From a virus (lineage: Duplodnaviria > Caudoviricetes), in the IMG/VR virus record IMGVR_UViG_3300020181_000004, positions 1 to 43,403 of that record: 43,403 nucleotides of DNA; one strand, 5' to 3'. This document shows, in pieces, positions 5,419-26,980 of this stretch. A model generated the notes under the pieces. That model was not told where the DNA came from, did no database searches, and was given only the letters and a program-made list of their open reading frames with translations. The first letter of the stretch is position 1. Each line of letters starts with the position of its first letter. The translations under genes and the position numbers were made by a program.

Positions 5419-5496
5419 ACAGCTCAGGCGCATCCATCGCTTCGGCACGAGCCAGTAAATCAGCCCGAGAGCTATTAGGACGTGCCAGACCTTCAC
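5377..5496 (-). CDS. 39-aa two-helix membrane peptide (not in ORF track)
   Basis: GTG-start ORF MKVWHVLIALGLIYWLVPKRWMRLSCLAGIAILVAFGVG, 15 nt after the secreted-protein gene; no clear RBS. Confidence 0.45.
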   Translation of the reverse strand: MKVWHVLIALGLIYWLVPKRWMRLSCLAGIAILVAFGVG

Positions 5497-5511
5497 CGAG
5501 CTAAGGTGTCG

Positions 5512-5871
5512 TCAATAGCTCGAGCAGCGGGTATTCCCGAACATATCCGTCCTGCAGCGCGTAGTGGTCCCATCGTCGCTGCGGAAGCGGGTATTCCCGA
5601 AGGCGTCCGTGGTGCCGCGAGTTGTGTTGCCATCGTTGTCGCGTAGCCGGATGTTCCCATAAGGATCGATCCTGCCGCGAGCGGTGGTTTCGCCGTTATT
5701 GCGGATGCGGACGTTGCCGTAAGGATCGACCGATCCCTGGGTGGTGTTGCCGTACATGTCACGGCAGCGCGAGTTGCCGAACATGTCCGTAGTGCAACGA
5801 GCGCTTTGCGCTTGGGCACTTGTGGTGACAATCATGCCTATCGCGAAAAGAGCTAGCTTCTTCATCTGCAT
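5512..5871 (-). CDS. Secreted beta-hairpin repeat protein (moron)
   Basis: Signal peptide MKKLALFAIGMIVTTSAQA; repeated DxYGN/DxFGN units; terminal Cys pairs. Confidence 0.75.
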   Translation of the reverse strand: MQMKKLALFAIGMIVTTSAQAQSARCTTDMFGNSRCRDMYGNTTQGSVDPYGNVRIRNNGETTARGRIDPYGNIRLRDNDGNTTRGTTDAFGNTRFRSDDGTTTRCRTDMFGNTRCSSY

Positions 5872-8636: not shown

Positions 8637-8941
8637 GAAGTTTAGGGACTTATAGCGTCATTCCCCTATGTCTCGCTAATCTTGCTATAACTGGCTGCGG
8701 CTACACATCCGAACCCGCAGTTCGCCTTGAGATCCAGCGCGTAGAGGTTCCCGTCCCTGTCGACTGCATCAATGCCGCCGACATTCCCGCAGTCGTTAAG
8801 TCGATGGACGAGGAATACGGGGCAGGGTGGAAAGAGCGGATGAGCGCTCCTCAGATTGCCGATGCGCTGGCGGCGAAGGTGCTGGAGCTGCGAGGATCGG
8901 ACAGGGAGTTTCGCGCACTCGTCTCAGGCTGCACTCGATAG
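8633..8941 (+). CDS. Outer-membrane spanin lipoprotein (Rz1-like)
   Basis: Lipobox LAITGC; VEVPVPVDC; C-terminal GC. Confidence 0.82.
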   Translation: MRSLGTYSVIPLCLANLAITGCGYTSEPAVRLEIQRVEVPVPVDCINAADIPAVVKSMDEEYGAGWKERMSAPQIADALAAKVLELRGSDREFRALVSGCTR

Positions 8942-8945
8942 CCGC

Positions 8946-9194
8946 TTATCCCCGCGGCGGCTCCATCGGAGCAGGCCTCAACGCCGCCTCCAACCTATCC
9001 AGAACCTCACCTGCATCCTGACGCTGTATCGTGGCTTCTCGTGTGTCCAGGGTATCGAATACCTCTCGTATGGCGTCTTCCATGCTTCCCTCTGGAGAGA
9101 TGCCCTTGCTTATGATGAGCATCGTCTTGTCGAGCTGATCGTATAGGTTGCGAAGGGAGGTTGTTGCTTCTCGCATTAGGCGGGGGTTGGTCAC
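8946..9194 (-). CDS. Hypothetical protein
   Basis: 82 aa, coupled to the upstream ORF, converges on the spanin. Confidence 0.55.
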   Translation of the reverse strand: MTNPRLMREATTSLRNLYDQLDKTMLIISKGISPEGSMEDAIREVFDTLDTREATIQRQDAGEVLDRLEAALRPAPMEPPRG

Positions 9195-9397
9195 TTCGTC
9201 ACGGCGCGGCGGATTAGGATCAGCTCAGCGAGCGCAAGGCTGGCAAGTATGAAGCCGAACGCCTCGATCACCTTATCCTCGTTCACCAGCCCGAACGCCA
9301 CCAAGATCAGCACTCCTGCGGCAAACAAGCGCAGGACGGGCACGAGGTGGTCCGTGAAAGCCTCGGTGAGCTCTTGTCTGAATGCGCGTAGCTTCAC
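9191..9397 (-). CDS. Small two-TM membrane protein
   Basis: 68 aa; GGAGG RBS before GTG; two hydrophobic segments. Confidence 0.65.
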   Translation of the reverse strand: MKLRAFRQELTEAFTDHLVPVLRLFAAGVLILVAFGLVNEDKVIEAFGFILASLALAELILIRRAVTK

Positions 9398-9450
9398 GAT
9401 CCCTCCTTCATCTCCACGTCCGCTAGGTCTTTCCTCATCTGACTTCCTTT

Positions 9451-9536
9451 GGGCGATGCGGCTTACGCCGCCGTTCTGCCACCCTTCGGGCTCAGCCGCT
9501 ACGCGTCTTCGTGCGTTGCATGGCTGCCACTATCGC
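9451..9536 (-). repeat. Structured three-hairpin element, copy 1
   Basis: GCGATAG..GAAGA-CGC[GTA]GCG-GCTGAG-CCC[GAA]GGG-TGGCAG..GCGGC[GTAA]GCCGC-ATCGCCC. Confidence 0.8.
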
Positions 9537-9705
9537 TAGTCCGGTATTCGCGTCGCCAGATGATGTCGTGACGGCCACGGGTAATAGAGAAATACCAGTC
9601 TCCCGGTCCCGCTGGTCGCGCTGCCAATTTGGCTAACCAGAGGAACGGATAGCTTCGGATGGAGAACGCTCCGGTCGAGCTGCTCGTTAGAAGATCATAA
9701 GCCAT
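9499..9705 (-). CDS. Hypothetical protein between structured elements 1 and 2
   Basis: 68 aa from ATG 9705 with GGAG RBS; stop lies inside element 1. Confidence 0.5.
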   Translation of the reverse strand: MAYDLLTSSSTGAFSIRSYPFLWLAKLAARPAGPGDWYFSITRGRHDIIWRREYRTSDSGSHATHEDA

Positions 9706-9764
9706 TTTAGTCTCCACGGTCTCGGCGTAGTTCATCGCGTAATTGCCTGCTTTTGCAAGACTTC

Positions 9765-9845
9765 GCGAGAGGATCGAAGCCTTTGGTCGAGACACCGAAG
9801 AGTGGCTCGATCCGTAGGACGAGAGCCGTGCCGAAGGCCTCGCCC
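9765..9845 (+). repeat. Structured three-hairpin element, copy 2
   Basis: GATCGAAGCCTTTGGTCGAGAC-ACC[GAA]GAGT-GGCTCGA-TCC[GTA]GGA-CGAGAGC..GCC[GAA]GGC-CTCGCCC. Confidence 0.8.
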
Positions 9846-9855
9846 CTAGACTTCT

Positions 9856-9870
9856 GTTCCCGCTCCGTTC
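9856..9870 (+). promoter_or_regulatory. Alphaproteobacterial LexA (SOS) box
   Basis: GTTC-CCGCTCC-GTTC, following a TAGACT -35-like hexamer and 12 nt before ATG 9883. Confidence 0.75.
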
Positions 9871-9882
9871 CACATGGCCCGG

Positions 9883-10167
9883 ATGCGATTCCCTCCTCCA
9901 ATCCTCATATCCAAAGCCCTTAAAGCTCTTGAGGAAGTAGCTCTCCAAGCAGAGACAGAAGCAGTTCCAAAGTCCGATAGCCTGAGGTTTCTCCTGGCGT
10001 ATTTGGCGAACCATGCTGAAGAGCGCTGGATGTTCGATAGCTTCTGGAAGGAAGCCACCACTCCGCCTCGAGATGCGTCTGCAGCTGCGAAGTTCGGACG
10101 AAGCCAATCGCTTACGGCTGCCGTGAACGGGATCTACGCACAGTTGAAGGTTGAGAGGCCGCATTAG
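9883..10167 (+). CDS. SOS-regulated hypothetical protein
   Basis: 94 aa (97 from 9874); lone + strand gene among - strand genes; LexA box upstream. Confidence 0.7.
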   Translation: MRFPPPILISKALKALEEVALQAETEAVPKSDSLRFLLAYLANHAEERWMFDSFWKEATTPPRDASAAAKFGRSQSLTAAVNGIYAQLKVERPH

Positions 10168-10670
10168 GCTGACCTCCAGATCACAAGCACGCATCCGAAC
10201 GGTGGCGAGCTGTTGAACTTGCCCTCGGGATTGTCAGGCAGGCCGAAGTTGAAGCGTCCGCGATAGAAGCGCGTCTCCAGCGGACCACGCCCGTCTCGGA
10301 AAGGCTCGATCATATCCTGCCACCAGCGCTGCTCAGTGCGGTTCGCGGGGAGTAGCATCACGATCAGCGGGCAACCGGCGTCATGCTCCTGCCAAGCCTT
10401 CTCAACCCACGGGCGAATGTCGCTATACGGCGGGTTGCACCAAACGCGGTGGCCCGCCCAAGACTGCGTCAGTCCGTTGGTGGTGAGGTCATAGTAGGCA
10501 GGCGTCTTGCGATTGCGCTCGTTCGCCGCAGCATCCAGCGTGAATGCGAACTCGTCGCGCAAAGGATCAAACACCTTCGCCGGCGTGATCCGCTCGTCAA
10601 CACTGTCGCTGGCACCACGTTTCCCAACCTGCTGGGGATGGTTGGTGATCTTGAAGCCGACGAGGCTCAC
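10164..10670 (-). CDS. Phage DNA N6-adenine methyltransferase (Dam-like) 1
   Basis: TP..F..L..EFAFTLDAAA; NGLTQSW; VWCNPPYS; VMLLPANRTEQRWW. Confidence 0.9.
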   Translation of the reverse strand: MSLVGFKITNHPQQVGKRGASDSVDERITPAKVFDPLRDEFAFTLDAAANERNRKTPAYYDLTTNGLTQSWAGHRVWCNPPYSDIRPWVEKAWQEHDAGCPLIVMLLPANRTEQRWWQDMIEPFRDGRGPLETRFYRGRFNFGLPDNPEGKFNSSPPFGCVLVIWRSA

Positions 10671-11182
10671 AGGGCCGCCCCATGAACAGCAGGCGCAGCC
10701 AGCTTTTCGATCTCCTCAAGGATGGCGCGGTTGATGACGAACCACTCGCCATGCCGGCGCTGAAGCCGAAACCTGCGATGGTAGTGATCCTCTAGGCTTG
10801 CATCGCCTTCCACGGTGGCGAGGATCTGAAGCTTCTCCGGTGAGCCGGTCTGAAGCTGCCTTAGGCGCCCAGGCACATCTTGGCTGGTGCCGATCTTCAC
10901 CTTACCGAGCATCTCTGCCGCCGCGCCGATGAAGTAGACCTTCTTCACGGGCAAGGCGTGATACCAAGCCTCATAGGCGTTGAGCATTGTGCGGTAGGCG
11001 GCGAAGGTGTCGCGTGTCTCTAGTGGTGTCTCACTGCCCTGCGGGTCTACGAGTCGCCACATGCCGTCCTGGCGCGGCTTCATAAGGTGCCACATGCCCA
11101 GAGCGAGCGGCAGACCAGTCTCACTGTCGCGGTAAAGGGTCGTGTCCTCGCGGAAGCGATTGTCGAAGAGCCCGGCCTTCAT
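10667..11182 (-). CDS. GIY-YIG family (T5orf172/MUG113-like) nuclease-domain protein
   Basis: VYFIG..VKIGTS.DV..RLRQLQTGSP..L..LA..E...H..F....HGEWF; start reassigned to ATG 11182. Confidence 0.85.
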   Translation of the reverse strand: MKAGLFDNRFREDTTLYRDSETGLPLALGMWHLMKPRQDGMWRLVDPQGSETPLETRDTFAAYRTMLNAYEAWYHALPVKKVYFIGAAAEMLGKVKIGTSQDVPGRLRQLQTGSPEKLQILATVEGDASLEDHYHRRFRLQRRHGEWFVINRAILEEIEKLAAPAVHGAAL

Positions 11183-11199
11183 GGCCGTGTTTCCTGCGC

Positions 11200-11216
11200 T
11201 GTACGGGATTTGTACG
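11200..11216. promoter_or_regulatory. Putative integrase arm-type sites, left arm
   Basis: TGTACG at 11200 and 11211 (11-bp period); the same pair recurs on the other side of the core. Confidence 0.55.
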
Positions 11217-11319
11217 CACGTTCCCTGCACGTTCGCACTTGTTCCTGCGCAAAGCTGCATGGAACATCGGGCCGCGCGCCGGAGGAGGGCGCTAACTGGC
11301 TTGAATTATATGGGGAAAA

Positions 11320-11366
11320 TGGCGCACCCGACAGGATTCGAACCTGTGGCCTCTGCCTTCGGAGGG
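11320..11366 (-). other. attP core = 3' half of host tRNA-Arg(CCG)
   Basis: Minus strand CCCTCCGAAGGCAGAGGCCACAGGTTCGAATCCTGTCGGGTGCGCCA contains the anticodon loop CTCCGAA, T arm and CCA; 18 bp from the integrase stop. Confidence 0.92.
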
Positions 11367-11384
11367 AATTGCTCCAAACCATGA

Positions 11385-12488
11385 TTAATCCTTATCAGAA
11401 AGTAGCTTAAGGCCCAACTGATTTTGCGCCTGTACGAGCCCTGTACGCAGCGCCTCATGAATTTTGGCGTCCGACTCCTCTGCGTGGGTGTAGACGCGAT
11501 CGACCATTCCGCCCTCTGGCGACCATCCTCCCACGTCCTCGATCGACTTGGTGTCCACGCGCTGGCGGACCTTCATTTCCTGCCCGAAGCCGTGACGGCC
11601 GGCAGAATGTGGCGGCAGTTCGGGGATGCCAGCCTTGCGACACGCGGTTGCCCAGCCCTTGCGCGGGCCACCACTGTCTGCCCAGCCAAATACGCGCAGG
11701 TTTCGCGTGTAGCGCTTGTCCCATCCCCTCGGCACCTTTGGCTTCAGGCGGCGCAGCTCCTCGGCTACTTCAGGCAGTAGGAGTACCTCTCGATCTTCAT
11801 GCCCCTTGGCGCCGGGAATGGTGATGCGATCCTCGTCCAGCTTCTTCAGGTGGTCTGGATGCATCGCCACAGCCTGCCCTACGCGAGCGCCGGTCGTGAA
11901 CATGAGAAGTGCGAGGGCTGCGTGCCGCTGGCTTGCGTGCTGCCTGAACTGCAGCAGCCATTCCCAGCTTCCTGGCGTCTTCTTCACGCGGCTCCGCTTG
12001 CCGCGCTTGCGGTCCTGCAGCACCCGCTCGGCCTTGGTGTAGCCGGGAATGCGGATAGGTGGGCAGAGATGCGGGTAGCGCTCGTTCGCCCCGTTGATCA
12101 CCGCACGGGCAGGGGCGATCACCCAACGCCTCCAGCTATCCGTGCTGTTGTTCGGATAGAGCTTGGGGCCAAGATCCTTGATCGTCTGCGCGGTGATCAG
12201 GCGCACTGGCTCGGCGCCTAGGTAGGCGAGGATGGGCACCAGGTACTTCGCCATCTGCTTGCCTCCGTGGTACAGCTCCACCGCATCGGCGAATGTGAAG
12301 ACGTGCTCCTCACCAACGACGTAGGCCTTTATCTCCCGGTCTGTCCTTTCGTTGATCCAGTCCCGCGCGCCAGCTTCTGTAGATGCGCGAGTGCTCTCGC
12401 GGATGTAGCCGGTGATCGGCCGACCGTTATATTCGACTTGCCCGCGCGCCCAGTAGACGGGGCCTCTTTTGTACGGCTCGAGCGGCAT
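11385..12488 (-). CDS. int: Tyrosine integrase
   Basis: TTGARVGQ (R), GAKGH (K), HSAGRH, VGGW, RVYTH (Y); start reassigned to MPLEPYKRG; adjacent to attP. Confidence 0.93.
   Translation of the reverse strand: MPLEPYKRGPVYWARGQVEYNGRPITGYIRESTRASTEAGARDWINERTDREIKAYVVGEEHVFTFADAVELYHGGKQMAKYLVPILAYLGAEPVRLITAQTIKDLGPKLYPNNSTDSWRRWVIAPARAVINGANERYPHLCPPIRIPGYTKAERVLQDRKRGKRSRVKKTPGSWEWLLQFRQHASQRHAALALLMFTTGARVGQAVAMHPDHLKKLDEDRITIPGAKGHEDREVLLLPEVAEELRRLKPKVPRGWDKRYTRNLRVFGWADSGGPRKGWATACRKAGIPELPPHSAGRHGFGQEMKVRQRVDTKSIEDVGGWSPEGGMVDRVYTHAEESDAKIHEALRTGLVQAQNQLGLKLLSDKD
11431..11447. promoter_or_regulatory. Putative integrase arm-type sites, right arm (inside int 3' end)
   Basis: TGTACG at 11431 and 11442. 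Confidence 0.55.
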
Positions 12489-12676
12489 GTGCTTTCCTGA
12501 AGGATGAAGTCGATTTGATCGGGCGTGATGAGCATTGCCTTGCCCATCTGGTGACAGGCGCCCAGCTCGCGAGCTTTGGCGCGCAGAGTGCGTTCGGAGA
12601 TATGAAGACCGCGGCCGGCGAACTCTTCGCACCAGGCCGACGGAGTTCTTCCGTCATTGAGGATGCGGCTAGCCAT
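12329..12676 (-). CDS. Excisionase-like HTH protein overlapping the int start
   Basis: ISERTLRAKARELGACHQMGKAMLITPDQIDFIL winged-HTH pattern; immediately upstream of int. Confidence 0.7.
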   Translation of the reverse strand: MASRILNDGRTPSAWCEEFAGRGLHISERTLRAKARELGACHQMGKAMLITPDQIDFILQESTCRSSRTKEAPSTGRAGKSNITVGRSPATSARALAHLQKLARGTGSTKGQTGR

Positions 12677-13037
12677 TCTTCCCCTTCTCCAAATGCACAG
12701 GGGATAGGACGACTTCAACGGCGGCTTTGGCAGCTTCCATCACTCGCTTATGATGCATTTGCCCCGGCTTTAACTCGCTCCAGGTAAGCAGCGTGTCGTG
12801 GACGTAGGTTCTATGCCAAATCGTCCGCGCCACCTTCTCGATCAACTCCTCATCAGCAGGTGAAGGGGGAGGGGAGAGGCGGGCAATGGCTGCGTCGAGC
12901 GTGTCAAGTTCTGCCTGAGTTTCTTGATCGTCCTCCGTTGTGACGTTGACCTGCTGAGCATAGGAGAGAACTGTTTGCTTCAGGTCTTCAAGCTGTGAGA
13001 TCAGCGCTTCATCCGATATATTCACTGTTCTGGTCAT
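12669..13037 (-). CDS. Hypothetical protein
   Basis: 122 aa; ELIEKVARTI motif common in early phage genes. Confidence 0.65.
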   Translation of the reverse strand: MTRTVNISDEALISQLEDLKQTVLSYAQQVNVTTEDDQETQAELDTLDAAIARLSPPPSPADEELIEKVARTIWHRTYVHDTLLTWSELKPGQMHHKRVMEAAKAAVEVVLSPVHLEKGKNG

Positions 13038-13055
13038 TGGTTGGCTCCGGAAGTT

Positions 13056-13137
13056 TGGCGATGCCTATCGGCCCGGGCTGCCACGGCTTCGCCGCTCAGC
13101 TGCTTCGCATCTTCGGCCCAGCTGGCATCCCTATCGC
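13056..13137 (-). repeat. Structured three-hairpin element, copy 3
   Basis: GCGATAG..GAAGA-TGC[GAA]GCA-GCTGAG-CGGC[GAA]GCCG-TGGCAG..GCC[GATA]GGC-ATCGCC. Confidence 0.8.
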
Positions 13138-13140
13138 GGG

Positions 13141-13641
13141 TCATGCGGCGATCTCCCAATCCTTGATTGAGAAGCCGGGGATGCCGGAGGCGGCAATTCG
13201 CTCCCCGGCCAATGCGCCGAAGCCAACAAGGACGACCGGAGCCCCGCTGTTGGCGGGCTGCTCAGTGCCGTCTGGCCGGCAGAACTTGATCCGATCCGCC
13301 AGAAAGAAAAGGTGGTCAGCTTTCCGCCATATGGGTTCGAACCACCCAGCCTCAGTCCGCGCGTGCACCAGCGCAATACCGTGGCCGTGACTTGCTAGAG
13401 CATCGATCCAGCGCCCGACCTCGTATCGATGGAACGGAGGGTTCAGCCAAACGAAGCCCTTCCAGACCTGAGCCAGCCCGTCATCCTTCGCCGTCCAATT
13501 ACACGCCGTCCCGATGTCCCAAGGGCGCATCGTTGCGGCGCAAGGATCTGTATCGAACGGGCCGAGAGCGTCGATCATCCACTTCGGAGTGAGATGTACC
13601 TGCGACTTGCCGATGGTTGATTGATGAGAGCCGATGGTCAT
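13141..13641 (-). CDS. Phage DNA N6-adenine methyltransferase (Dam-like) 2
   Basis: LTPKWMIDALGPFDTDPCA; DDGLAQVW; VWLNPPF; GIALVHARTE. Confidence 0.9.
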   Translation of the reverse strand: MTIGSHQSTIGKSQVHLTPKWMIDALGPFDTDPCAATMRPWDIGTACNWTAKDDGLAQVWKGFVWLNPPFHRYEVGRWIDALASHGHGIALVHARTEAGWFEPIWRKADHLFFLADRIKFCRPDGTEQPANSGAPVVLVGFGALAGERIAASGIPGFSIKDWEIAA

Positions 13642-13910
13642 CGTCCGCTCCCTTGCGCCTGATGAGCGCCGACAGGCGAAGACGCGAAGCGGCTGAGGTC
13701 CGTAGGACCGCCAGCAGGTTGCCCCGTCAGGGGACGCCCAATCGTGGAGATCACCACATCCCCCGGAGCCTTATCTGTTCTAACAACCCTATCCGGAGGA
13801 ACCACATCAGGGTTCCTGGTCCTCCTCACAAAGCTATCGCTAGGTCCGCTGGAACACCTATCCCCATCAGCATAGGCAAGCGTATTGCCGCTCCTGTCTC
13901 TCCAGGTCAT
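13638..13910 (-). CDS. Hypothetical protein; C-terminus reads through element 4 in antisense
   Basis: 90 aa, ATGA-coupled at both ends. Confidence 0.45.
   Translation of the reverse strand: MTWRDRSGNTLAYADGDRCSSGPSDSFVRRTRNPDVVPPDRVVRTDKAPGDVVISTIGRPLTGQPAGGPTDLSRFASSPVGAHQAQGSGR
13654..13739 (+). repeat. Structured three-hairpin element, copy 4
   Basis: TGCGCCTGAT..GAAGA-CGC[GAA]GCG-GCTGAG-GTCC[GTA]GGAC..AGCAGGTTG-CCCC[GTCA]GGGG-ACGCCC. Confidence 0.8.
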
Positions 13911-14269
13911 GACTGGCGCTCCAGTTCACGTCCGCGCTGGATTGCTGCGAGTGTCATTTGAACCTCTGGACTGGCGTCTTTGTCGCCCCGCAAGAACGGT
14001 GTTTCCGCGTACCATTGCGCCAAACCCTCAGCGGCCAGCCTGCGAGCCTCAATCAGGTCAGGATGGGGCGGCTGTATCTCGGAGAGTGGCTTCGACAGGT
14101 CACGAAGAGCCTGAGCCGCACACAGGACTGACCAGTTGCGGTCACGCTGGCCGGCCCTGATTGCCGCTTCATCGTTGGTTGCGACTTCATGGGTGATGCC
14201 AAGCCCGCGCGTGTAGCCGGCGGCGATAGAAGCCTCCCGAGCGCGGATCAGGATTTCTTCCTCAGTCAT
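13907..14269 (-). CDS. Hypothetical protein
   Basis: 120 aa, coupled; internal duplication (IRAGQRD / LRGDKD). Confidence 0.65.
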   Translation of the reverse strand: MTEEEILIRAREASIAAGYTRGLGITHEVATNDEAAIRAGQRDRNWSVLCAAQALRDLSKPLSEIQPPHPDLIEARRLAAEGLAQWYAETPFLRGDKDASPEVQMTLAAIQRGRELERQS

Positions 14270-14319
14270 CGGCCCAAATCCCCTTCGTTAGACCACTGCA
14301 CCCCATGCCGAGCGATCAT
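14266..14319 (-). pseudogene. 17-aa ORF resembling the NinB C-terminus
   Basis: MIARHGVQWSNEGDLGR, ATGA-coupled on both sides. Confidence 0.35.
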
Positions 14320-14771
14320 GCTGCCTCTCCGAGTTCGGCTTCGCCTTCCTGGCGCAGTTGGGTCACATCGCAGCCAAGGCGGCGCGAGATGCGTTCCAGC
14401 GCGGCGTCGATGAACTGCGCCCGCTCGTTCTCCGGCATGTTCTCGAAGGCGATGCTCTCGTAATCCCAGTCGATGATCTCGCCGGTCTTCTTGCTGACGA
14501 TCGGCTTCGCGAGCCCCTCTTCGCGCTTCAGCCAGCGGTGCAGCGCCTTGCGGGACAGTATCCCGTCCACGGCATCGGAAAGAAGCTCGCACGCCTTCTT
14601 GAGGCATATCCAGTAGAGGCCGAGACGCTTTGTGTTGCCGCGGATGTTGGTGATCTCGACACGCAGGAGCTTGTCCGGAAGGCTCGCCATCATCTCTTCG
14701 GCGGCCGGCGTAACTGGACGTAGTGCGCCGAAAGACTTGCGAAACAGGATTGGCTCGTTGTCAGCCATCAC
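14316..14771 (-). CDS. DUF1367/NinB-like recombination-associated protein
   Basis: GALRPVT; ESIAFENMPENERAQFID; sits in the recombination module. Confidence 0.65.
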   Translation of the reverse strand: MMADNEPILFRKSFGALRPVTPAAEEMMASLPDKLLRVEITNIRGNTKRLGLYWICLKKACELLSDAVDGILSRKALHRWLKREEGLAKPIVSKKTGEIIDWDYESIAFENMPENERAQFIDAALERISRRLGCDVTQLRQEGEAELGEAA

Positions 14772-15129
14772 GCTCCTCCCACAGTCTGTCCGCCACGGTC
14801 AGCAGATCGATCCCGTACTCTCTGAAGAAGCCGGGATGCCCCAGTGCCTCCACGCTTTCCCTCGGCCCCCAGATGATCTGATGATGCCTGCCGCACAACG
14901 GGACGACCCTCTGCTCCGATCGAGCTATCCGCCCGCCGTGGATCGAAGCCGTCACATGATGCAGCGTCGATGGACCTCCACAGACGAGACATGGCATCGA
15001 GCGAACCCGTGCATGGTGCCGCTTCTCTTCCGCGGTCGGCCCACGCTTCTTCTGCGGCTGCGGACAGCGCTCGGGTGCCTTCCTGCGAGGCTTGTCCCGC
15101 TTGGGCTTGAGGAAGGCGCGACGAAGCAT
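14761..15129 (-). CDS. Zn-binding HNH-like nuclease (DUF968/Ref-like)
   Basis: MPCLVCG..TLHHV..VVPLCGRHHQ..FFREYG. Confidence 0.8.
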   Translation of the reverse strand: MLRRAFLKPKRDKPRRKAPERCPQPQKKRGPTAEEKRHHARVRSMPCLVCGGPSTLHHVTASIHGGRIARSEQRVVPLCGRHHQIIWGPRESVEALGHPGFFREYGIDLLTVADRLWEERDG

Positions 15130-15132
15130 CCA

Positions 15133-15345
15133 TCACCGCACGTTCCACTCAAGCAGCCGATCGACTACCTCGGGCGTCTTCAGTGTCCCTGCAGGAAGGT
15201 GTCCAGTCCGTGCGCGATGCTTGAGCAGCCGACGCATCCGGTATGCAGGATCACTGGCGTAGCGTTCACGCCTTCGCTCACGGGAGCGGCGGTTAACCTC
15301 CTCCCGGTAGGCGCGTTCGGTGGCGAGATATTCGGCCTCGGTCAC
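15133..15345 (-). CDS. Arg-rich hypothetical protein
   Basis: 70 aa, coupled to the exonuclease gene. Confidence 0.6.
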   Translation of the reverse strand: MTEAEYLATERAYREEVNRRSRERRRERYASDPAYRMRRLLKHRARTGHLPAGTLKTPEVVDRLLEWNVR

Positions 15346-15971
15346 GCTGCGAGCCTTTCCGCTTCATACAGGCGCTGAAGTTCGGAGACGGTCTGCTCGA
15401 CCTCAGCCAGGAACTCGGCCACGTCCTTCTCGAGCTGCGCTATCGCCGCATCGTCACGCTCCACGCGGGCCACGAACAGGCGCATGGATTCCGGTAGCCG
15501 CGGATCGTAGCTGGCGAAGTCGCACCACTGCCGTCCCGTGCAGGCGAGCTGCCACTGGATCTGTGTGAGGTATTTGGCGGGGACAGACCGGCCGAGAAGC
15601 GTAGCTATATGCGTCGCGGTCTGCGGGCATTTCAGCTCGACCAGTCCATCCTCGCCAATCAGGCCGTCCGGTGACGCTCCGCTCATCGGAATGGTGGGAT
15701 GGTCGATGAACCCGACCTCCACCACGTCCGCGTCCTGCCTGAAACTGTAAGCCTCCCGAGCCTCGCACTCGGTGTCGGTGCCCCACTGCATTGCAGCGTT
15801 GGAGAACATCTCGGTGGGCGTGCCGGTAAGCCGCTCGGCGACAAGCTGCGCCGCGTAGGACGCTCTGCTTGCGCCCCAGCCCGTCTTTGTCTTGGCGACG
15901 ATGTCGGCAATGCGAGAGGCGGTTGCCTTGCCTAGCCGCGCATCGAACCATTCCGCCGATCGCTGGTCCAT
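15342..15971 (-). CDS. Lambda-exonuclease/YqaJ family 5'-3' exonuclease
   Basis: QRSAEWFDARLGKATAS; MQWGTDTE; GASPDGLI; ELKCP; QIQWQLAC. Confidence 0.95.
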   Translation of the reverse strand: MDQRSAEWFDARLGKATASRIADIVAKTKTGWGASRASYAAQLVAERLTGTPTEMFSNAAMQWGTDTECEAREAYSFRQDADVVEVGFIDHPTIPMSGASPDGLIGEDGLVELKCPQTATHIATLLGRSVPAKYLTQIQWQLACTGRQWCDFASYDPRLPESMRLFVARVERDDAAIAQLEKDVAEFLAEVEQTVSELQRLYEAERLAA

Positions 15972-15972
15972 C

Positions 15973-16608
15973 TCAGGCGGCCTTCTTCTGTGGGTTGAAG
16001 TAGGCTTCGGCCTCGTCCGGGTTCTTTGCCTTCAGCGCAGCCACCGCCTCGGTGTAGCGGGCAGCAGGGATGTCCCTGAGGCTCGGCACCTTGAAGTAGG
16101 TGCAGAACTTCTGCGCGTCGGCGCCAACGGCCTGCGCAAGCCCGATCAGCACGGCTGACTGCGTGTCGTCTACCTTGGCGCCATCCACGCGCTGGTGGTT
16201 GTTGTCGGCGCCCTTGCCGGCCACCGCGGCGTTCCCGTCGTCATCCTCAGGTGCAATGCCCACCATTGCCGTTAGGGCGTAGCGGCGGGCATAGGTGACT
16301 GCCGAGCCGTAACCCTGCGCATCCACCTTCGCGAGCGGGATGGTCAGGCGTTCGCTGATCCACTCGCCGCTTTCATGGACAAGCATGGTGGTCATCTCGA
16401 CCACGCCGGATGCTGCCTCGCCAGGTGCCTGGACCACTGCCAGGCCGTTCTTGGACAGAGCTTCGCGACAGGCGTCCCAGCAGCTCGCCAGGTCGGCATA
16501 CTTGCTCTTGAAGTGCGGGTTCGCGCTGTCCTTGCGTGCGCCTTCGATCATGCCCTGAGCCTTGGCGAGGGCGGCTCCAAGCGCAGCGATGCTATCGCTA
16601 TGGTTCAT
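15973..16608 (-). CDS. erf: ERF family single-strand annealing protein
   Basis: KDSANPHFKSKYADL; HESGEWI; AQGYGSAVTYARRYAL; EDDDGN. Confidence 0.95.
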   Translation of the reverse strand: MNHSDSIAALGAALAKAQGMIEGARKDSANPHFKSKYADLASCWDACREALSKNGLAVVQAPGEAASGVVEMTTMLVHESGEWISERLTIPLAKVDAQGYGSAVTYARRYALTAMVGIAPEDDDGNAAVAGKGADNNHQRVDGAKVDDTQSAVLIGLAQAVGADAQKFCTYFKVPSLRDIPAARYTEAVAALKAKNPDEAEAYFNPQKKAA

Positions 16609-16841
16609 TGGCTTAGTCCTTCATCGGGGGGTGATGGATGGAAGCGAAACTTGCCTTCGCGCCGGGCAGCTTCGACGTGGAGATGGGAGGCCGCGCCAAC
16701 GAGGGCATTCCACTCGTCCACGCTGAGCCCATCGCGCCCCAATCGAGTGCGAAGGGCTCCCAGCCTCTCTGCCGTTTGGCGATGCTCATGTGCTGCGAAT
16801 TCATCCAGCAGCTCGGCAAGTGAGCGCTTGTTATCGCTCAT
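16605..16841 (-). CDS. Hypothetical protein
   Basis: 78 aa; GGAGG RBS; coupled. Confidence 0.65.
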   Translation of the reverse strand: MSDNKRSLAELLDEFAAHEHRQTAERLGALRTRLGRDGLSVDEWNALVGAASHLHVEAARREGKFRFHPSPPDEGLSQ

Positions 16842-17386
16842 CTCCTCCCTCCCTCTATGGCGGAGAGGAGGGCATCTATTCGTCCGATTGAGTAGCAGAG
16901 CCCCTGCGCAAATCCGTCCGAATAGGATGACCTATCGCCTGTGGTCGACTGCTTGAGCATGAATTGCCGGAGGCCTTCCCGTATCGCCTCGATGCTGCCA
17001 GCAGGTAGTTTGCTGGGGCGGCATAGGACGTGTGGACCGTCCGTTTTGTATGCGCGAATGACCTCGGCAATCTCTGCGCCGACCTGCTTGACAGCCTCTT
17101 GCTTGGCAGGATCACGCCAATCGCGTTCGGCGCGCTGCACCGCATAATCGGCCACCAAAGCTGCGTGTTCATATATTTCATCCACCCCCGGATCGGGCTT
17201 GGTGGAGGCGAGGGCTGCAAGATCGACAAGCGCGCCCAACATGAACAGCGCGTCGGACAGTCCAGCGACTTCTTCAGGAAGCGCGAAGCCGACGAGCCGC
17301 TCTCCGTTGCCAAGGGGGGAGTTAATCCTGCGTTTCGCTGTCAGCAGTGGCTCAGCAAGCGCCAGGAGTGCTTCAGTATCAGCCAT
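16838..17386 (-). CDS. Hypothetical mosaic protein
   Basis: Start reassigned to MADTEALLALAE with GAGG RBS. Confidence 0.6.
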   Translation of the reverse strand: MADTEALLALAEPLLTAKRRINSPLGNGERLVGFALPEEVAGLSDALFMLGALVDLAALASTKPDPGVDEIYEHAALVADYAVQRAERDWRDPAKQEAVKQVGAEIAEVIRAYKTDGPHVLCRPSKLPAGSIEAIREGLRQFMLKQSTTGDRSSYSDGFAQGLCYSIGRIDALLSAIEGGRR

Positions 17387-17720
17387 TGTGGTCCTCGGGG
17401 TAAGGGATGGCGATGCGGAGTGTTGGATCGCTTGCGTGGAGCCGGTTCCACCACGCCATGACGTTGTACGCCCAGCCACCGAGGCGGCGCTCGTCGATGA
17501 GACACCCAGAAGAGTCTCGGAACGTGCGGCTGTTTGAACAGCGAATGTAGTAACCAGCACCGATACCCGCGTCTGATATAACGGCATGGCCGCCACACAG
17601 CTTGCAGGGGACGCACTTCTCTTGCGCGTCGAGCATCTGCTCGTGATACGACAAGCGCGAAGGATCGAAGCTCGACCCCTCAGGGGAGCGCCAACCCTCA
17701 GGCACGCTATCCCCCATCAT
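17379..17720 (-). CDS. Lar-like Zn-finger protein
   Basis: PCKLCGG..YYIRC..GC..WWNR, resembling the Lar restriction-alleviation pattern. Confidence 0.55.
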   Translation of the reverse strand: MMGDSVPEGWRSPEGSSFDPSRLSYHEQMLDAQEKCVPCKLCGGHAVISDAGIGAGYYIRCSNSRTFRDSSGCLIDERRLGGWAYNVMAWWNRLHASDPTLRIAIPYPEDHNG

Positions 17721-17980
17721 GAGGATGACTCGACTGTGTTTGTGGGGGTGGGCGCTTCAGGAAGCGGCATCCAGTGACTGATTTCGGTCATGTCCGGCGC
17801 GGCAACGTCAGCCAGAAGCTGCTCTGCGAACGTCCAGTATCCGTCCTCGCCGAGCTCTTCCGCTATGTCGGCGGGATACGCTTCCCAGCGGATGACCTCC
17901 GGCCATTCGTAGCCAACCGCAATTGCGAGAATGGCCGTCCCGTCTCGCGGCGCCGTGTCGATCGGTTGCCAGGCGCTCAT
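17717..17980 (-). CDS. DUF551 family protein
   Basis: WQPIDTAPRDGT ... SHWMPLPEAP. Confidence 0.85.
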   Translation of the reverse strand: MSAWQPIDTAPRDGTAILAIAVGYEWPEVIRWEAYPADIAEELGEDGYWTFAEQLLADVAAPDMTEISHWMPLPEAPTPTNTVESSS

Positions 17981-18153
17981 GCCAGCACCATCAGCGCCAG
18001 AAGAAACCCGACAATAACCAGCCCCTTCCAATCTCTTGATGCAGAGACGAGAGGATGAGCATCAGCACGGTTGCGAAGGTGATGCCCGCCTGTTGCTGTA
18101 GGGTCAGACATGGCGAACGACATGTGATCCGTGGGGATGTTGTGGAGGTTCAT
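17977..18153 (-). CDS. Small protein with C-terminal TM helix
   Basis: 58 aa ending GLVIVGFLLALMVLA; coupled. Confidence 0.55.
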   Translation of the reverse strand: MNLHNIPTDHMSFAMSDPTATGGHHLRNRADAHPLVSASRDWKGLVIVGFLLALMVLA

Positions 18154-18323
18154 CAGTCCCGCTCCCCTCTGTAGATTGCCTGCATTTCGGCCCACACTTC
18201 GGGAGGCCATGCGTCTTGACGGGTGCAGCGTTGGACACGCCGCTGGATCGGTTCGGGCTTGTCGATGTCGCCGCGGATGTGGAGCTTTTCACCAAGCTGG
18301 CGGGCCAACGGGAGGACGCTCAT
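18153..18323 (-). CDS. Hypothetical protein
   Basis: 56 aa; GGAGG RBS; coupled. Confidence 0.55.
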   Translation of the reverse strand: MSVLPLARQLGEKLHIRGDIDKPEPIQRRVQRCTRQDAWPPEVWAEMQAIYRGERD

Positions 18324-18538
18324 TGCAGCCTCCCTTCGATTACCCACTGACGGCCAGCAGCCTCAGCAGCTTCGCGTGTGGTGAACTTGTGCGTATGCCC
18401 ATCAGCGCGGCACCAATCGCCTTCACCAAAGAGGCGCAGGTGCCAGTGCAGGCAAATGCCAGGGCGAAGATCGCGCTTGTGGAATATCTCGTAGGACCGA
18501 GGCTCCGTCTGCGCTTCGATAGCGGCGGCGTATGTCAT
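18320..18538 (-). CDS. Hypothetical protein
   Basis: 72 aa; FTTREAAEAAG motif; coupled. Confidence 0.6.
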   Translation of the reverse strand: MTYAAAIEAQTEPRSYEIFHKRDLRPGICLHWHLRLFGEGDWCRADGHTHKFTTREAAEAAGRQWVIEGRLQ

Positions 18539-18849
18539 GCCTCACCTCCGATGCGGGTGAGGGCGGAGTTGAACTGCGCTATCGCGGCGCGAACCTCGCC
18601 AGCAGTCACCTGATCGCTGGCGCCGCTACCCATGAAGTGCAGCACAACAGCACCGTCGGGGACTGGCTCATCGACCAACTCGCATTGCGCCAGGGACATG
18701 CTGACTGGAAGCAGGCACCGCGACAAAGCGACTGCCGCCTCCAACCCCGGCACCACCTCATCAATGAAGAACTGGCGTACAGCCTCCATGCCTCCGTCGC
18801 GCTCTGCGGCGTCCAGCTTGTTCAGGAGAGTTTCGGAGAGGCGGGTCAT
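18535..18849 (-). CDS. Hypothetical protein
   Basis: 104 aa from MTRLSE; coupled. Confidence 0.6.
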   Translation of the reverse strand: MTRLSETLLNKLDAAERDGGMEAVRQFFIDEVVPGLEAAVALSRCLLPVSMSLAQCELVDEPVPDGAVVLHFMGSGASDQVTAGEVRAAIAQFNSALTRIGGEA

Positions 18850-19265
18850 GCCGCTTCTCCGGTAGGCTCTTGAGACGGCCGAAGGTTCTCGGCAGCCCAA
18901 CTACGCATGTGCTGCCAGCGGCTTTCCGGGTCCGCGCCCCAATAGGCCTCGTCGTTCATGAACTCGATTTCACGAACCAGCTGTTCGGCAATGCCGAATG
19001 TCGCCGCGATGCGGTCCGGGTCCTGCGGATGGAGAGCGCTCATGTCGACGCCGCGCCGCACGCCTACGCTGCCGATGGCGCAGACCTCGCCGTTCGCCTC
19101 CAGCTCATGGGCAATCAGCCGCTTCTCGGGCATGGCGTCGAGGGCGGCGATCAACTCACGCAGGAAGGCCTGCCCACGCCTTCCGCGGATCGCGCTTGCA
19201 ACCTGCCCGCGCCAACGGATCAGCTGCCAATTGTCGATATCTTCGTTGTAGCCGGCTCTGCTCAT
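18846..19265 (-). CDS. Conserved-looking phage hypothetical protein
   Basis: WRGQVASAIRGRRGQAFLREL..LDAMPEKRLI..VCAIG..EIEFMNDE..RWQHMRSW. Confidence 0.8.
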   Translation of the reverse strand: MSRAGYNEDIDNWQLIRWRGQVASAIRGRRGQAFLRELIAALDAMPEKRLIAHELEANGEVCAIGSVGVRRGVDMSALHPQDPDRIAATFGIAEQLVREIEFMNDEAYWGADPESRWQHMRSWAAENLRPSQEPTGEAA

Positions 19266-19277
19266 CGCCCGCTCCTC

Positions 19278-19363
19278 TGCGCCTGATCGAAGCCTTTGGT
19301 GGAGACAGCGCAGACTGGCTCCATCGCGTCAGCGACGAGAGCAGGTTGCCCGAAGGGACGCCC
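19278..19363 (+). repeat. Structured three-hairpin element, copy 5
   Basis: TGCGCCTGATCGAAGCCTTTGGTGGAGAC-AGC[GCA]GACT-GGCTCCA-TCGC[GTCA]GCGA-CGAGAGCAGGTTG-CCC[GAA]GGG-ACGCCC. Confidence 0.8.
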
Positions 19364-19422
19364 AGAAACGGCGGCTCCCACCTGATCAACCCTATCGAGG
19401 ATGCGCTTGGATAGATCGGGGG

Positions 19423-19668
19423 TCATGCTGATAGCGCCTTCTCGAGGCGATCAGCGAGGGCGCCGAAGGTGTAGGGGCTATCGGCTAGGGCGAGCGCCAT
19501 CCGATTGGATACGGTGCCTTCGAGGCTATCCGGACAAATTAGGTGCGGAAAGCCGAGGTCCCTTCCGAACTGCGACAGCGCGCAGCGGGAGGGATTGAAG
19601 AAATCGTACCCCTCATCCGCAGGCTTGCTGCGGAAGTAGGCGAGTGCCTGATGCTCTAGGGATTGCAC
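19423..19668 (-). CDS. First gene of the leftward early operon, hypothetical
   Basis: 81 aa; GGAG RBS; directly downstream of PL. Confidence 0.65.
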   Translation of the reverse strand: MQSLEHQALAYFRSKPADEGYDFFNPSRCALSQFGRDLGFPHLICPDSLEGTVSNRMALALADSPYTFGALADRLEKALSA

Positions 19669-19704
19669 CGTTCTATCTCCCGGCCCGATGTGGGCTAATG
19701 GGAG

Positions 19705-19750
19705 AACCTATAAAACAGAATTTGATATAATGTCAAACGCTATTTTGATA
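19705..19750 (-). promoter_or_regulatory. Leftward early promoter PL with operators
   Basis: Minus-strand TTGACA (19731-36); operator-like TATAAAA-N5-TTTGATA (19709-27) and TGTCAAA-N6-TTTGATA (19731-50). Confidence 0.75.
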
Positions 19751-19825
19751 TCACGGCATCATCCTAAGATAAAACCGTCGCGGCCTCTCCTCTTTAAGCG
19801 GCAGCCGGGGCGGAGAGAAGAGGGG

Positions 19826-20185
19826 ATGATGCGTGATACAAAGCGATTCGGAGTCTACATTGATGTTTTGATCCAATATCGTGAGATCTGGGAAAATGCG
19901 CTGCTCGGCCTCGAGCTGACCAGGGCCTATTGCGAGAGCTACACTGTCACGGCTGACAGCGTTGCGGCATCTCTCAGGATCAGTGACGATACTGCCAGGC
20001 GCTTGCTCGATCGGCTTGTCAGCCGAGGCCGCGTTCTGATGGTTATACAGCAAGGCCGGCGACGATACGCTCCGGTTGCGGAGTTTGCTGAACGGTCGCT
20101 GGCGATTATTAGTGAGGCTGAGAAATACCACCCGCAGACTGCGGTCGATGGCCATGCTTCAGCCGCAAACTGCGGCCTAACATAG
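19826..20185 (+). CDS. Winged-helix DNA-binding protein in the immunity region
   Basis: TADSVAASLRISDDTARRLLDRLVSRGRV; purine-rich RBS before ATG 19826. Confidence 0.75.
   Translation: MMRDTKRFGVYIDVLIQYREIWENALLGLELTRAYCESYTVTADSVAASLRISDDTARRLLDRLVSRGRVLMVIQQGRRRYAPVAEFAERSLAIISEAEKYHPQTAVDGHASAANCGLT
20132..20175. promoter_or_regulatory. Twin palindromes CCGCA-N3-TGCGG
   Basis: CCGCAGACTGCGG (20132-44) and CCGCAAACTGCGG (20163-75), 31 bp apart. Confidence 0.55.
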
Positions 20186-20256
20186 ATTGCCCCCTGCGGG
20201 AAAGCCGCGCAAAAACAGCTTTCCTACAGGCGTTTGCGTCCTCTAGGGCAGATTGA

Positions 20257-20271
20257 GTTCTTGTTCTGTTC
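20257..20271 (+). promoter_or_regulatory. Alphaproteobacterial LexA (SOS) box
   Basis: GTTC-TTGTTCT-GTTC, intergenic, 30 bp beyond the repressor stop. Confidence 0.75.
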
Positions 20272-20285
20272 TTCGGGAGCGATGT

Positions 20286-20519
20286 ATGCGAACAGCATTA
20301 ATCACGTGCCGCGCGCTTGGGGCTGTTGTTGCTGCCACGCAGCGTGAGCTGCATGCGATGCCCGCGTATGAAGCGGCGCGTCTTCAGGGAAAACTTCAAG
20401 CAGCCGCTTCGCTTCAAGCACGGCACTGGCAAGGGTGTCAGCTCTGTCGGACGTCATGCCCTCTAGCGCAAACAAGTGGAGCAGGATGTCTCTCAGGCCC
20501 TCGTCAGTCCCTTCACTAA
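20286..20519 (+). CDS. Cys-rich ORF antisense to the repressor (candidate antirepressor)
   Basis: 77 aa; GGGAG RBS 6 nt before ATG; SOS box upstream; CQLCRTSCPL. Confidence 0.45.
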   Translation: MRTALITCRALGAVVAATQRELHAMPAYEAARLQGKLQAAASLQARHWQGCQLCRTSCPLAQTSGAGCLSGPRQSLH

Positions 20520-26098: not shown

Positions 26099-26651
26099 CG
26101 ACCTAGACTCCACCAGCTTCCACATGCCTGACGTTCCTGCCGGCTTCGGAGATGCACTGAGAGCCGCGGCAAAGGCTCACCGGGAAGCGCAGGCGCCAGC
26201 GTCCTACGAGGAGCGCCGGGACATCCTGCGCGGACTTCGGCTCAGCACCGTGGCTCGAAATGAAAGCGAGCATGAGGCTCGAGCATCGTTCGAGAAGCTG
26301 ATTGCCGACCTTCAGGACGTACCCGCCGACATCCTGCGGGCCGCCTGTAGCGCCTACGCCAACGAGCCGGGGACGCGATACTTCCCAAGAGGTGCGGGCG
26401 AGCTGCGATCGTTCATCAACCCGCTTGTGGCGAGCCGCGCTCGACGCGCCTGGCGCCTGAACGAAATGGCGAAGGCGTCGGACGAGGTGTTTGACGAGAG
26501 CAAGCGCTGCCGTCCGGAAGACGCCGCCAAGATCATGGAGGAGTTCGGGCTCAAATCCGAAACCCGCGAGATGCTGAAGGCCCACCTCGGCTCACCCCGC
26601 AAGCCCACCGCATCCGATTACGAAGATATCAGAAGGAGCATGGGGAGATGA
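26001..26651 (+). CDS. Replication accessory protein (helicase-loader position)
   Basis: DLQDVPADILRAAC..RYFPR..ELR; follows the initiator; start uncertain. Confidence 0.6.
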   Translation: MASNPIIRSEPPTATQSLAMRLTSCVPAWVSTSDLDSTSFHMPDVPAGFGDALRAAAKAHREAQAPASYEERRDILRGLRLSTVARNESEHEARASFEKLIADLQDVPADILRAACSAYANEPGTRYFPRGAGELRSFINPLVASRARRAWRLNEMAKASDEVFDESKRCRPEDAAKIMEEFGLKSETREMLKAHLGSPRKPTASDYEDIRRSMGR

Positions 26652-26980
26652 ATGCGGTCAAGGCCCTCTCAGACTTGGACAGCCACCTCGCCCAGCTTCG
26701 AGAGGATGTTCGACGCGGAAAGGTTGCGAATACCGCGCTCGGCTGGCTGGAGGAATACGGGGCGCGATCGGCTACGGAGTTCCCCGGATTGGAGGTGGAT
26801 ATTGCCGCGCCATTTGCCACGGCGTGTTCTGGCTACAGCGAGGCGATCCAGTTCCTAGATGCGGCCGGAAAAGAGCTTGGTGATGCCATCGTGGCCCGGG
26901 CCATTGAGAATGCGAAAGCAGCCGTAGCCAAGGCTCTCAGCGCCTCAGCAGCCGTCCCTCAACAACATAATCCCAACTAA
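26648..26980 (+). CDS. Hypothetical protein
   Basis: 110 aa, coupled. Confidence 0.65.
   Translation: MNAVKALSDLDSHLAQLREDVRRGKVANTALGWLEEYGARSATEFPGLEVDIAAPFATACSGYSEAIQFLDAAGKELGDAIVARAIENAKAAVAKALSASAAVPQQHNPN

Follow-up and report, generated by a model that had tools for sequence, protein, structure and literature searches.

Priming signals that act on single-stranded DNA (ssDNA) have been described in several replicons. RSF1010, with its paired ssiA/ssiB sites, and ColE1, with two n'-pas sites, have priming signals on opposite strands a few hundred bases apart, the G4-type primase (DnaG) site carries a conserved CTG start triplet beside a hairpin, and GAAGCGG is the consensus of the primosome assembly sites (PAS). 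Repeated sites around genes are also familiar. Integron attC sites are co-oriented, occur once per cassette and are simple hairpins read by IntI, and REP/REPIN-RAYT systems, IS200/IS605 ends, pdif modules and T4-type PeSL cassettes form inverted doublets or alternating sites around genes; PeSL and the CUP repeats are promoter repeats, with the CUP repeats of IncN plasmids described upstream of ccgAI and ardA. According to the accessible parts of the sources, the PriA site of phiX174 lies just after the capsid gene and its hairpin is bound by PriA (PMC9865509; bioRxiv 10.64898/2026.07.25.740675), and the leading genes of conjugative plasmids are encoded on the transferred strand, or T-strand (Samuel et al. 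2024, PMC11541004). Here we describe a folded element of about 80 nt, of which five copies (E1 to E5) occur in the IMG/VR virus record IMGVR_UViG_3300020181_000004, a temperate phage of the Caudoviricetes; the whole record of 43,403 bases was analysed and is called the window below.

The same fold was detected on conjugative plasmids, in Microviridae and, mostly as inverted pairs around single genes, in other temperate phages. Our reading, to which we give about even weight, is that it is a signal that folds in ssDNA and lets the host prime the complementary strand, like the single-strand initiation (ssi) signals, and that it has been reused in phages as the ends of gene cassettes whose passengers are swapped there. 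A complementary-strand signal is the best reading because the element occurs once on the virion strand of microviruses and several times on the transferred strand of plasmids.

Architecture and covariation of the folded element

The five elements lie at 9451..9536 (-), 9765..9845 (+), 13056..13137 (-), 13655..13739 (+) and 19279..19363 (+), in agreement with a preliminary description of the window except that E4 and E5 begin one base later. A covariance model built from 50 sequences, these five included (R2), assigned 58.8, 65.3, 67.7, 56.5 and 45.0 bits to E1 to E5, respectively, a range of 45-68 bits, with the next best place in the window at 17.5 bits. The preliminary description had also united the five copies in one family, which was borne out by a model made without E2 and E5 (R1) that ranks these two fourth and fifth in the window (25.3 and 17.9 bits). 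Relatives were first gathered by exact-pattern scans of IMG/VR, and the element was found in Microvirga and Sphingomonas genomes as well as in IMG/VR phages, so an alphaproteobacterial host of the window phage is likely.

The predicted fold is closed and branched, with a four-way junction nested in a three-way junction, and contains G·A pairs and GNA loops (N, any base). The three hairpins first described (hp1, hp2 and hp3) are real, but they do not stand alone, since they are enclosed by the long-range helices P1 and P2 and accompanied by a fourth small hairpin, hp0. P1 consists of 5' GCGNN paired with 3' NNCGC, followed by CC or CA, and hp3 branches off it, while P2, with its G-C pair, A·G step and covarying pair, closes the four-way junction with hp0, hp1 and hp2. 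In E3 this junction has zero unpaired bases and every pair of the hand-drawn structure is valid. The base of hp1 in E1, E3 and E4 is CGAAGA/GCTGAG (C-G, tandem G·A, A-T, G-C and A·G), and in E2, E5 and many relatives it is Watson-Crick, with GA opposite GA in P2 instead. By a loose pattern, 154 of the 210 distinct ends have a tandem G·A in P2 or hp1, and almost all of these have it in a single arm. The 3' terminus is CGCCC or CGCCA in 173 of the 210. Every loop had been described as GNA or GNNA, which is right for the three named hairpins but not for hp0, whose loops are TTT, AAC, TGG or GACA; in E2 and E5 the GNA loop of hp1 is closed by a single pair followed by a mismatch.

The stem changes with retained pairing that had been listed for the five copies are present in the sequence. 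In a MAFFT alignment of 50 ends, 89% of the cells pair and two-sided changes occur at 23 of the 27 pairs; the covariation score of this alignment was reached by 0 of 500 shuffles, and slid controls pair at 31-39%. Because relatedness by itself can lift a score above that of shuffles, the slid controls and the count of pair types carry more weight here. For a second set, with 122 distinct ends fitted to the model and hence in an alignment biased toward the structure, the figures are 95.8% of cells and 25 of the 27 pairs. Ends within one phage diverge in sequence and keep the pairing.

The preliminary statement that the element belongs to no named family holds for Rfam and for those ssi and PAS elements that were compared. 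Rfam 15 gave 0 matches in the window at the gathering threshold, and the five weak matches up to E 10 in 8800-20400 do not overlap the elements, while ARAGORN found neither tRNA nor tmRNA. A hammerhead ribozyme reading of CTGATGA in E4 was rejected, as the motif is missing from the other copies. Full-text literature searches turned up neither the fold nor the cassettes, though older ssi or CUP work might hold one.

That the elements act as folded ssDNA rather than as RNA, the view taken at the outset, is well supported by an excess of GNA loops and by position on the ssDNA strand of plasmids and microviruses. GNA triloops closed by C-G are very stable in DNA. Hairpins of at least 3 bp in 97 distinct ends carry 203 GNA, 36 GNYA, 24 GNRA and 3 UNCG loops, compared with 13.6 GNA in shuffles, and the opposite strand carries 10 UNCG loops; the GNA excess is partly built in, because a GNA loop in hp1 was a requirement of three of the four patterns used for seeding. 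The proposed comparison of DNA and RNA folding energies gave no separation (z -2.8 to +0.6 with both parameter sets and on both strands), and genomic position is a stronger argument for ssDNA than loop counts or energies. Structured RNAs, either a ribozyme or a regulatory RNA, would fit the tandem G·A pairs and multi-way junctions, which are common in RNA, and RNA folding measured against shuffles is as favourable as DNA folding. However, we consider them extremely improbable, given that GNA and GNYA loops outnumber GNRA and UNCG, that the alignments contain few G·U/G·T pairs, that copies occur antisense as often as sense in one operon, and that Rfam returned no match. It is very probable that the element would act on ssDNA.

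Copies on conjugative plasmids and microviruses

One plasmid-type copy compared with PLSDB by blastn matched 3,865 of 72,556 records, 2,603 of them over at least 80% of its length, and 2,930 were typed as conjugative. By R2, the F plasmid has copies at 58092-58173 and 63480-63561, both on the strand opposite its leading genes, the IncF plasmid pEC14_114 has three co-oriented copies, IncN pKOX105 and the MOBF plasmid pIEC33019 have three each, R388 (IncW) has two, and a Bradyrhizobium plasmid has one. In F, pEC14_114, pKOX105, pIEC33019 and R388, all copies of a plasmid have the same orientation, opposite to most leading genes, and occupy its leading region; those of IncN are found upstream of ccgAI and ardA. 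From the side of the relaxase and the origin of transfer and from PMC11541004, we infer that the strand bearing the copies is the transferred strand. Matches were also obtained in at least 21 of 121 genomes of the Sphingomonas metalli family (38 candidates scored per genome), several of them solo copies on contigs resembling plasmids or integrative and conjugative elements, upstream of and antisense to ArdC-like or ParB-like genes (named from translations); the copy compared with PLSDB is one of these.

A single copy on the coding strand was found in each of five Microviridae records, with four distinct sequences among them (KT264808, MH572438, L308, L326 and L348). The copy of KT264808 lies between VP1 and VP2 (49.6 bits with R2), that of MH572438 consists of the core only (30.4 bits), and the last three records, of which L326 and L348 share the same element, are the 3 of the 124 loci of a second scan described below with microvirus protein matches. 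The coding strand of the Microviridae is the virion strand, and a copy there cannot be a promoter for the virus genes, whereas the minus-strand origin must lie on that strand. The element is thus on the ssDNA strand in five of five microvirus records, and on the probable T-strand in five plasmids.

The copy of KT264808 resembles the phiX174 n'-pas, a hairpin between genes F and G, in being folded ssDNA on the virion strand after a capsid gene, and hp1 of E1, E3 and E4 shares its CGAAG/CTGAG tandem-G·A helix base with the phiX174 hairpin. The phiX174 site differs in being one long AT-rich hairpin in a single copy, with no cassettes, whereas the element is a GC-rich branched fold. The paired signals of RSF1010 and ColE1 differ in serving one origin and not bracketing variable genes many times per genome. 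With Frpo/ssiD, ssiE and ssi1-3 of ColIb-P9 (PMC11541004; Couturier et al. 2023, PMC9849209), the element shares the strand and the organisation as repeated modules of the leading region. The F-type copies are neighbours of Frpo homologues, the two inspected in pEC14_114 lying 3' of an ssiD/Frpo homologue at a distance of about 110 nt and forming no part of it, but the element has no -35/-10 stem, is 80 nt long and is GC-rich. It was found inside or at the end of the Frpo*2, *6 and *7 candidates of Supplementary Table 2 of PMC11541004, was not visible by eye in any of the five known sequences of that table, and is not singled out in the accessible part of that paper. At the place of the fold, Frpo*4 and Frpo*5 of the same table have another GC-rich motif starting TTCGCCATCAGACC, perhaps an interchangeable second family. 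The element appears to work like an ssi or a single-strand origin (sso), yet it fails the sequence tests for every named member compared.

The closeness to Frpo might instead indicate an accessory ssDNA module for gene control or protection that takes no part in priming, such as a scaffold that excludes SSB (the protein that coats ssDNA), a replication roadblock or an exonuclease-resistant cap near Frpo-type promoters. The distance of about 110 nt in F-type plasmids and the location within the three Frpo candidates would suit such a module, an ssDNA promoter hairpin of F acts as a roadblock according to the accessible part of bioRxiv 10.64898/2026.01.09.698686, and the upstream phage ends are on the template strand and adjoin a ribosome-binding site. 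We regard it as improbable nonetheless, since the ssiD/Frpo sequence does not include the element, which lacks a -10-like box, and since the microvirus copies and the downstream phage ends are on the non-template strand.

Inverted pairs and gene cassettes in temperate phages

Ends were detected by R2 in 24 of 25 phage records searched whole, which had been chosen because 24 of them already held a pattern match. These 24 records and the window together contain 98 ends, 66 of which form 33 minus-then-plus pairs less than 1.1 kb apart, with the 5' ends inward and CGCCC outward. Neighbours closer than 1.1 kb numbered 41, comprising 33 with 5' ends inward, five in the reverse arrangement and three co-oriented, the pairs not being fully independent. 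A second scan with another pattern gave 124 loci, of which 79 were scored and 76 had an R2 match; 30 of its 49 neighbour pairs are 5'-inward, 29 of them less than 800 bp apart, in a count that omits two loci on contigs already used. A loose-pattern scan was mostly noise, with an R2 match in 10 of 80 scored loci (of 121), and a pattern match in an Actinomycetota metagenome-assembled genome (L067) was rejected, having no R1 match and representing a different tandem repeat that contains CGAAGA-hairpin-GCTGAG.

The passengers are varied. Among 29 candidate passenger open reading frames (ORFs), Pfam gave methyltransferases, YspA-SLOG, a Lar domain and otherwise weak matches only, with no transposase, recombinase, HUH, reverse-transcriptase or integron integrase family, and reading frames frequently cross one or both ends. 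One record (G004) has 16 ends and four cassettes in tandem, and another (G023) has an empty doublet of two ends with a 6-nt spacer. In G005 and G018 both ends and the outer flanks are common and the passengers differ, and G009 and G014 carry an identical 81-nt end with unrelated flanks on both sides. Passengers have likely been swapped between phages at the ends.

In structure kept while sequence drifts, in alternation with single genes and in tandem arrays, these cassettes resemble integron attC sites, from which they differ in having two inverted ends per gene. No GTAG-type tag, HUH transposase or XerC/D arms were found as in REPINs, IS200/IS605 or pdif modules, and the fold is at the 3' end of each strand. 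The likeness to attC arrays, REPINs and pdif modules is in layout only. The DUF1874 motif has been proposed as a complex attC-like ssDNA (accessible part of Weinberg et al. 2017, PMC5737381). The 'alpha-transposases' motif was rejected as a relative, being described in the accessible part of its source as a single hairpin (Weinberg et al. 2007, PMC1950547).

A structure-specific site for recombination or strand transfer, similar to integron attC or to HUH ends, with each end-gene-end unit a non-autonomous cassette moved in trans, would explain the sharp conserved outer terminus, the strict inverted pairing, the empty doublet and the four tandem cassettes, the exchange of passengers between common ends and the many reading frames that cross both ends; a variant contig that begins at the outer end of E4, described below, points the same way. 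However, target-site duplications were absent from 31 of the 33 cassettes and were 3 bp long in the other two, the scanned passengers include no mobility enzyme family, and no mobiliser gene is common to all carriers. The proteins of the window have BLAST relatives in at most 8 of the 24 carrier records, many of which are fragments, and the largest single-linkage protein cluster covers 16 of 25 records, its representative having a T5orf172-like part. In addition, plasmid copies are co-oriented and microvirus copies single, so no pair is needed. We hold such a site to be rather unlikely.

The phage ends might also be merely inherited repeats that provide portable homology for Erf/Red-type recombination, in the manner of linker or PeSL-like shuffling, the fold being selected elsewhere. 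Related phages do share fold-less linkers of 36-60 nt at gene junctions, crossovers fall inside the ends, and relic ends exist. But the ends of one phage diverge in sequence and keep their pairing, the opposite of what homology needs, and their orientation is strongly non-random, which makes this explanation highly improbable. In the related phages compared (G016:C1 38900-41520 with G017:C1 2780-5610, and G005 with G018), otherwise unrelated early genes are joined at near-identical linkers of 35-60 nt, and these linkers consist of a gene end, a ribosome-binding site and the first codons.

Other forms of the ends were met. In G005:C1 at about 26470-26950 (L104; L022), an ORF for a putative HNH endonuclease is inserted in a downstream end between P2 and hp3, and the syntenic end in G018 is intact. 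L177:721-2502 has 5'-inward minus and plus ends around a 1.6-kb segment that encodes a tyrosine-integrase-like protein and a small excisionase-like one; it is the only case met with a recombinase between the ends, and these are probably two solo ends. Virus contigs L289, L303 and L317 and the look-alikes L292, L300, L307, L309, L330, L347, L349, L352 and L354 carry a single compact 70-nt form without hp3; phrog_2554 occurs close by in three of these contigs, and transglycosylase genes in some.

In the window, E3 and E4 bracket a Dam-family methyltransferase, E1 and E2 bracket a small ORF of no known family, and E5 has no partner. E1 is the downstream end of cassette 1, with P2 partly decayed, and E2 its upstream end, with a Watson-Crick hp1 base and the tandem G·A in P2. 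The candidate passenger between them (9499..9735, -), 78 aa from an internal ATG, runs into E1 and is possibly no real gene; it is part of ORF 9499-10194, which had no PHROG or Pfam match. In cassette 2, the downstream end E3 lies 3 nt past the stop codon of the Dam-family DNA adenine methyltransferase (13141..13641, -; 166 aa; phrog_111, E 1e-28; PF05869, E 6e-9), and the 5' end of the upstream end E4 abuts its ribosome-binding site. E5 is an unpaired upstream end whose 5' end abuts the ribosome-binding site of a phrog_25637 gene of unknown function (18846..19265, -), likely the passenger of a cassette that has lost its other end; R2 revealed no partner of E5 in the window, even with filters off. 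A probable internally deleted relic of an upstream end that retains P1, the start of P2 and hp3 lies at 17655..17693 (+) inside ORF 17379-17720 (R2 14.7 bits, E 1, not significant), and a possible deleted relic of a downstream end was seen by eye, without model support, at 17408..17437 (-).

Contigs that possibly come from the source sample (run X1) vary beside two of the ends. In a minority contig the 108-nt segment 13740..13847 is swapped for an unknown 72-nt segment (joint 13739 to 13848, depth 7 versus 16.5), the left break being exactly the outer end of E4, and another contig departs from the window sequence directly behind 19363, the outer end of E5. The segment outside E4 (13740-13900), polymorphic in run X1, contains imperfect short repeats ACCACATC, CCGGAG and CTATC.

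Blastn of window 9300-14300 against GenBank phages gave only methyltransferase and tRNA pieces, and E3 alone gave no full-length match among plasmids, so the phage copies are beyond the reach of blastn. A related-locus search with the E5-adjacent gene gave no match. The same search with the cassette 2 methyltransferase gave two loci, of which the one whole record searched (G025) has no ends; this gene family therefore also exists without them.

The window, which has a 127-nt terminal repeat, encodes an exonuclease, Erf, a NinB-like protein, a repressor, a terminase, a portal protein and an integrase. All five elements are located at gene junctions on the side of the repressor bearing the integrase and recombination genes, where the majority of genes are on the minus strand. 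A tRNA-Arg-like attP piece (11317-11374) and the tyrosine integrase (11385-12632), together 11317..12632 (-), sit between both cassettes and inside neither, and the exonuclease and the Erf-like ssDNA annealing protein form a phage recombination module at 15342..16608 (-; phrog_149, phrog_2324 and phrog_155). Two Dam-family methyltransferases (10164-10670 and 13141-13641) lie 2.5 kb apart, with the ends bracketing only the second, and a weak end-like stretch was observed at 10254-10292 within the first (R2, E 0.3). A T5orf172/MUG113-family gene (10667-11260) adjoins attP, and phmmer finds its relatives in 9 of the 24 carrier records (10 rows). Farther away, at 5526-5825, a 60-nt repeat occurs four times (spacing 60/60/120, 60-75% alike) within the minus-strand ORFs 5493-5831 and 5512-5871.

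Proposed complementary-strand priming and its meaning

If the element is a complementary-strand signal, it would be a single-strand initiation signal most likely loading a PriA-type restart primosome, rather than one used by RNA polymerase or primase alone, a proposal toward which we lean slightly. Of the two roles suggested in the preliminary description, recombination or priming, the latter would thus be preferred. A TATAAT-like box was found in 0 of the 210 distinct ends, and GCTG after hp1 occurs in 38 of the 210, in a column that covaries with its partner; the lack of a -10 box and of a conserved CTG argues against RNA polymerase or primase alone. A PriA-type loading site is favoured because the tandem-G·A helix base is common with the phiX174 hairpin and the tandem is kept in most of the ends.

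In the phage cassettes the 5' ends face inward, so that each strand of the passenger carries a signal at its 3' end and either displaced strand could become double-stranded. An opened passenger would then load two helicases moving outward, like a small bidirectional origin, and the local extra copies might be recombined into other phage genomes by the phage Erf and exonuclease, with the ends as crossover points. This combination of signals on both strands, outward helicases and spread of extra copies is put forward tentatively, and we judge it on the doubtful side.

Several observations weigh against priming or against its use in cassettes. R2 found no match in phiX174, in ColE1 or in the origin region of mini-F, from which the classical primosome sites are known, GAAGCGG occurs in only 30 of the 210 distinct ends, and under the loose pattern 56 of the 210 do not show the tandem G·A. 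ColIb-P9 from 15 to 60 kb, which covers its leading region, gave no R2 match, so conjugation does not need the element. [quoted passage not shown] No precise empty site was found by flank BLAST, the relatives being too distant and the shared linkers stopping 5-15 nt short of the ends, and no joint that skips a cassette is listed among the run X1 contigs. A site of cutting or strand transfer would account for the fixed CGCC(C/A) terminus equally well.

As a natural DNA structure the fold is much more elaborate than a hairpin, and across the family its G·A tandems exchange with Watson-Crick pairs. Priming of the transferred plasmid strand and of most microvirus genomes in the recipient cell is only partly known, and the family offers one defined 80-nt priming candidate for it, with two copies in F, the model plasmid, and occurrences in thousands of records of conjugative plasmids. 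The broadest reading is that one ssDNA priming fold of F, IncN and IncW leading regions and of microvirus minus-strand origins was turned by temperate alphaproteobacterial phages into a gene cassette, with the opposed folds making a self-copying unit that would spread without a transposase or integrase of its own and drive mosaicism of the early region; we offer it as a possibility that we consider unlikely on present evidence. The cassette arrangement may be categorically new, and it provides a concrete candidate cause of the gene-by-gene swapping seen in the early regions of temperate phages, with methyltransferases, Lar-like and SLOG proteins as passengers.

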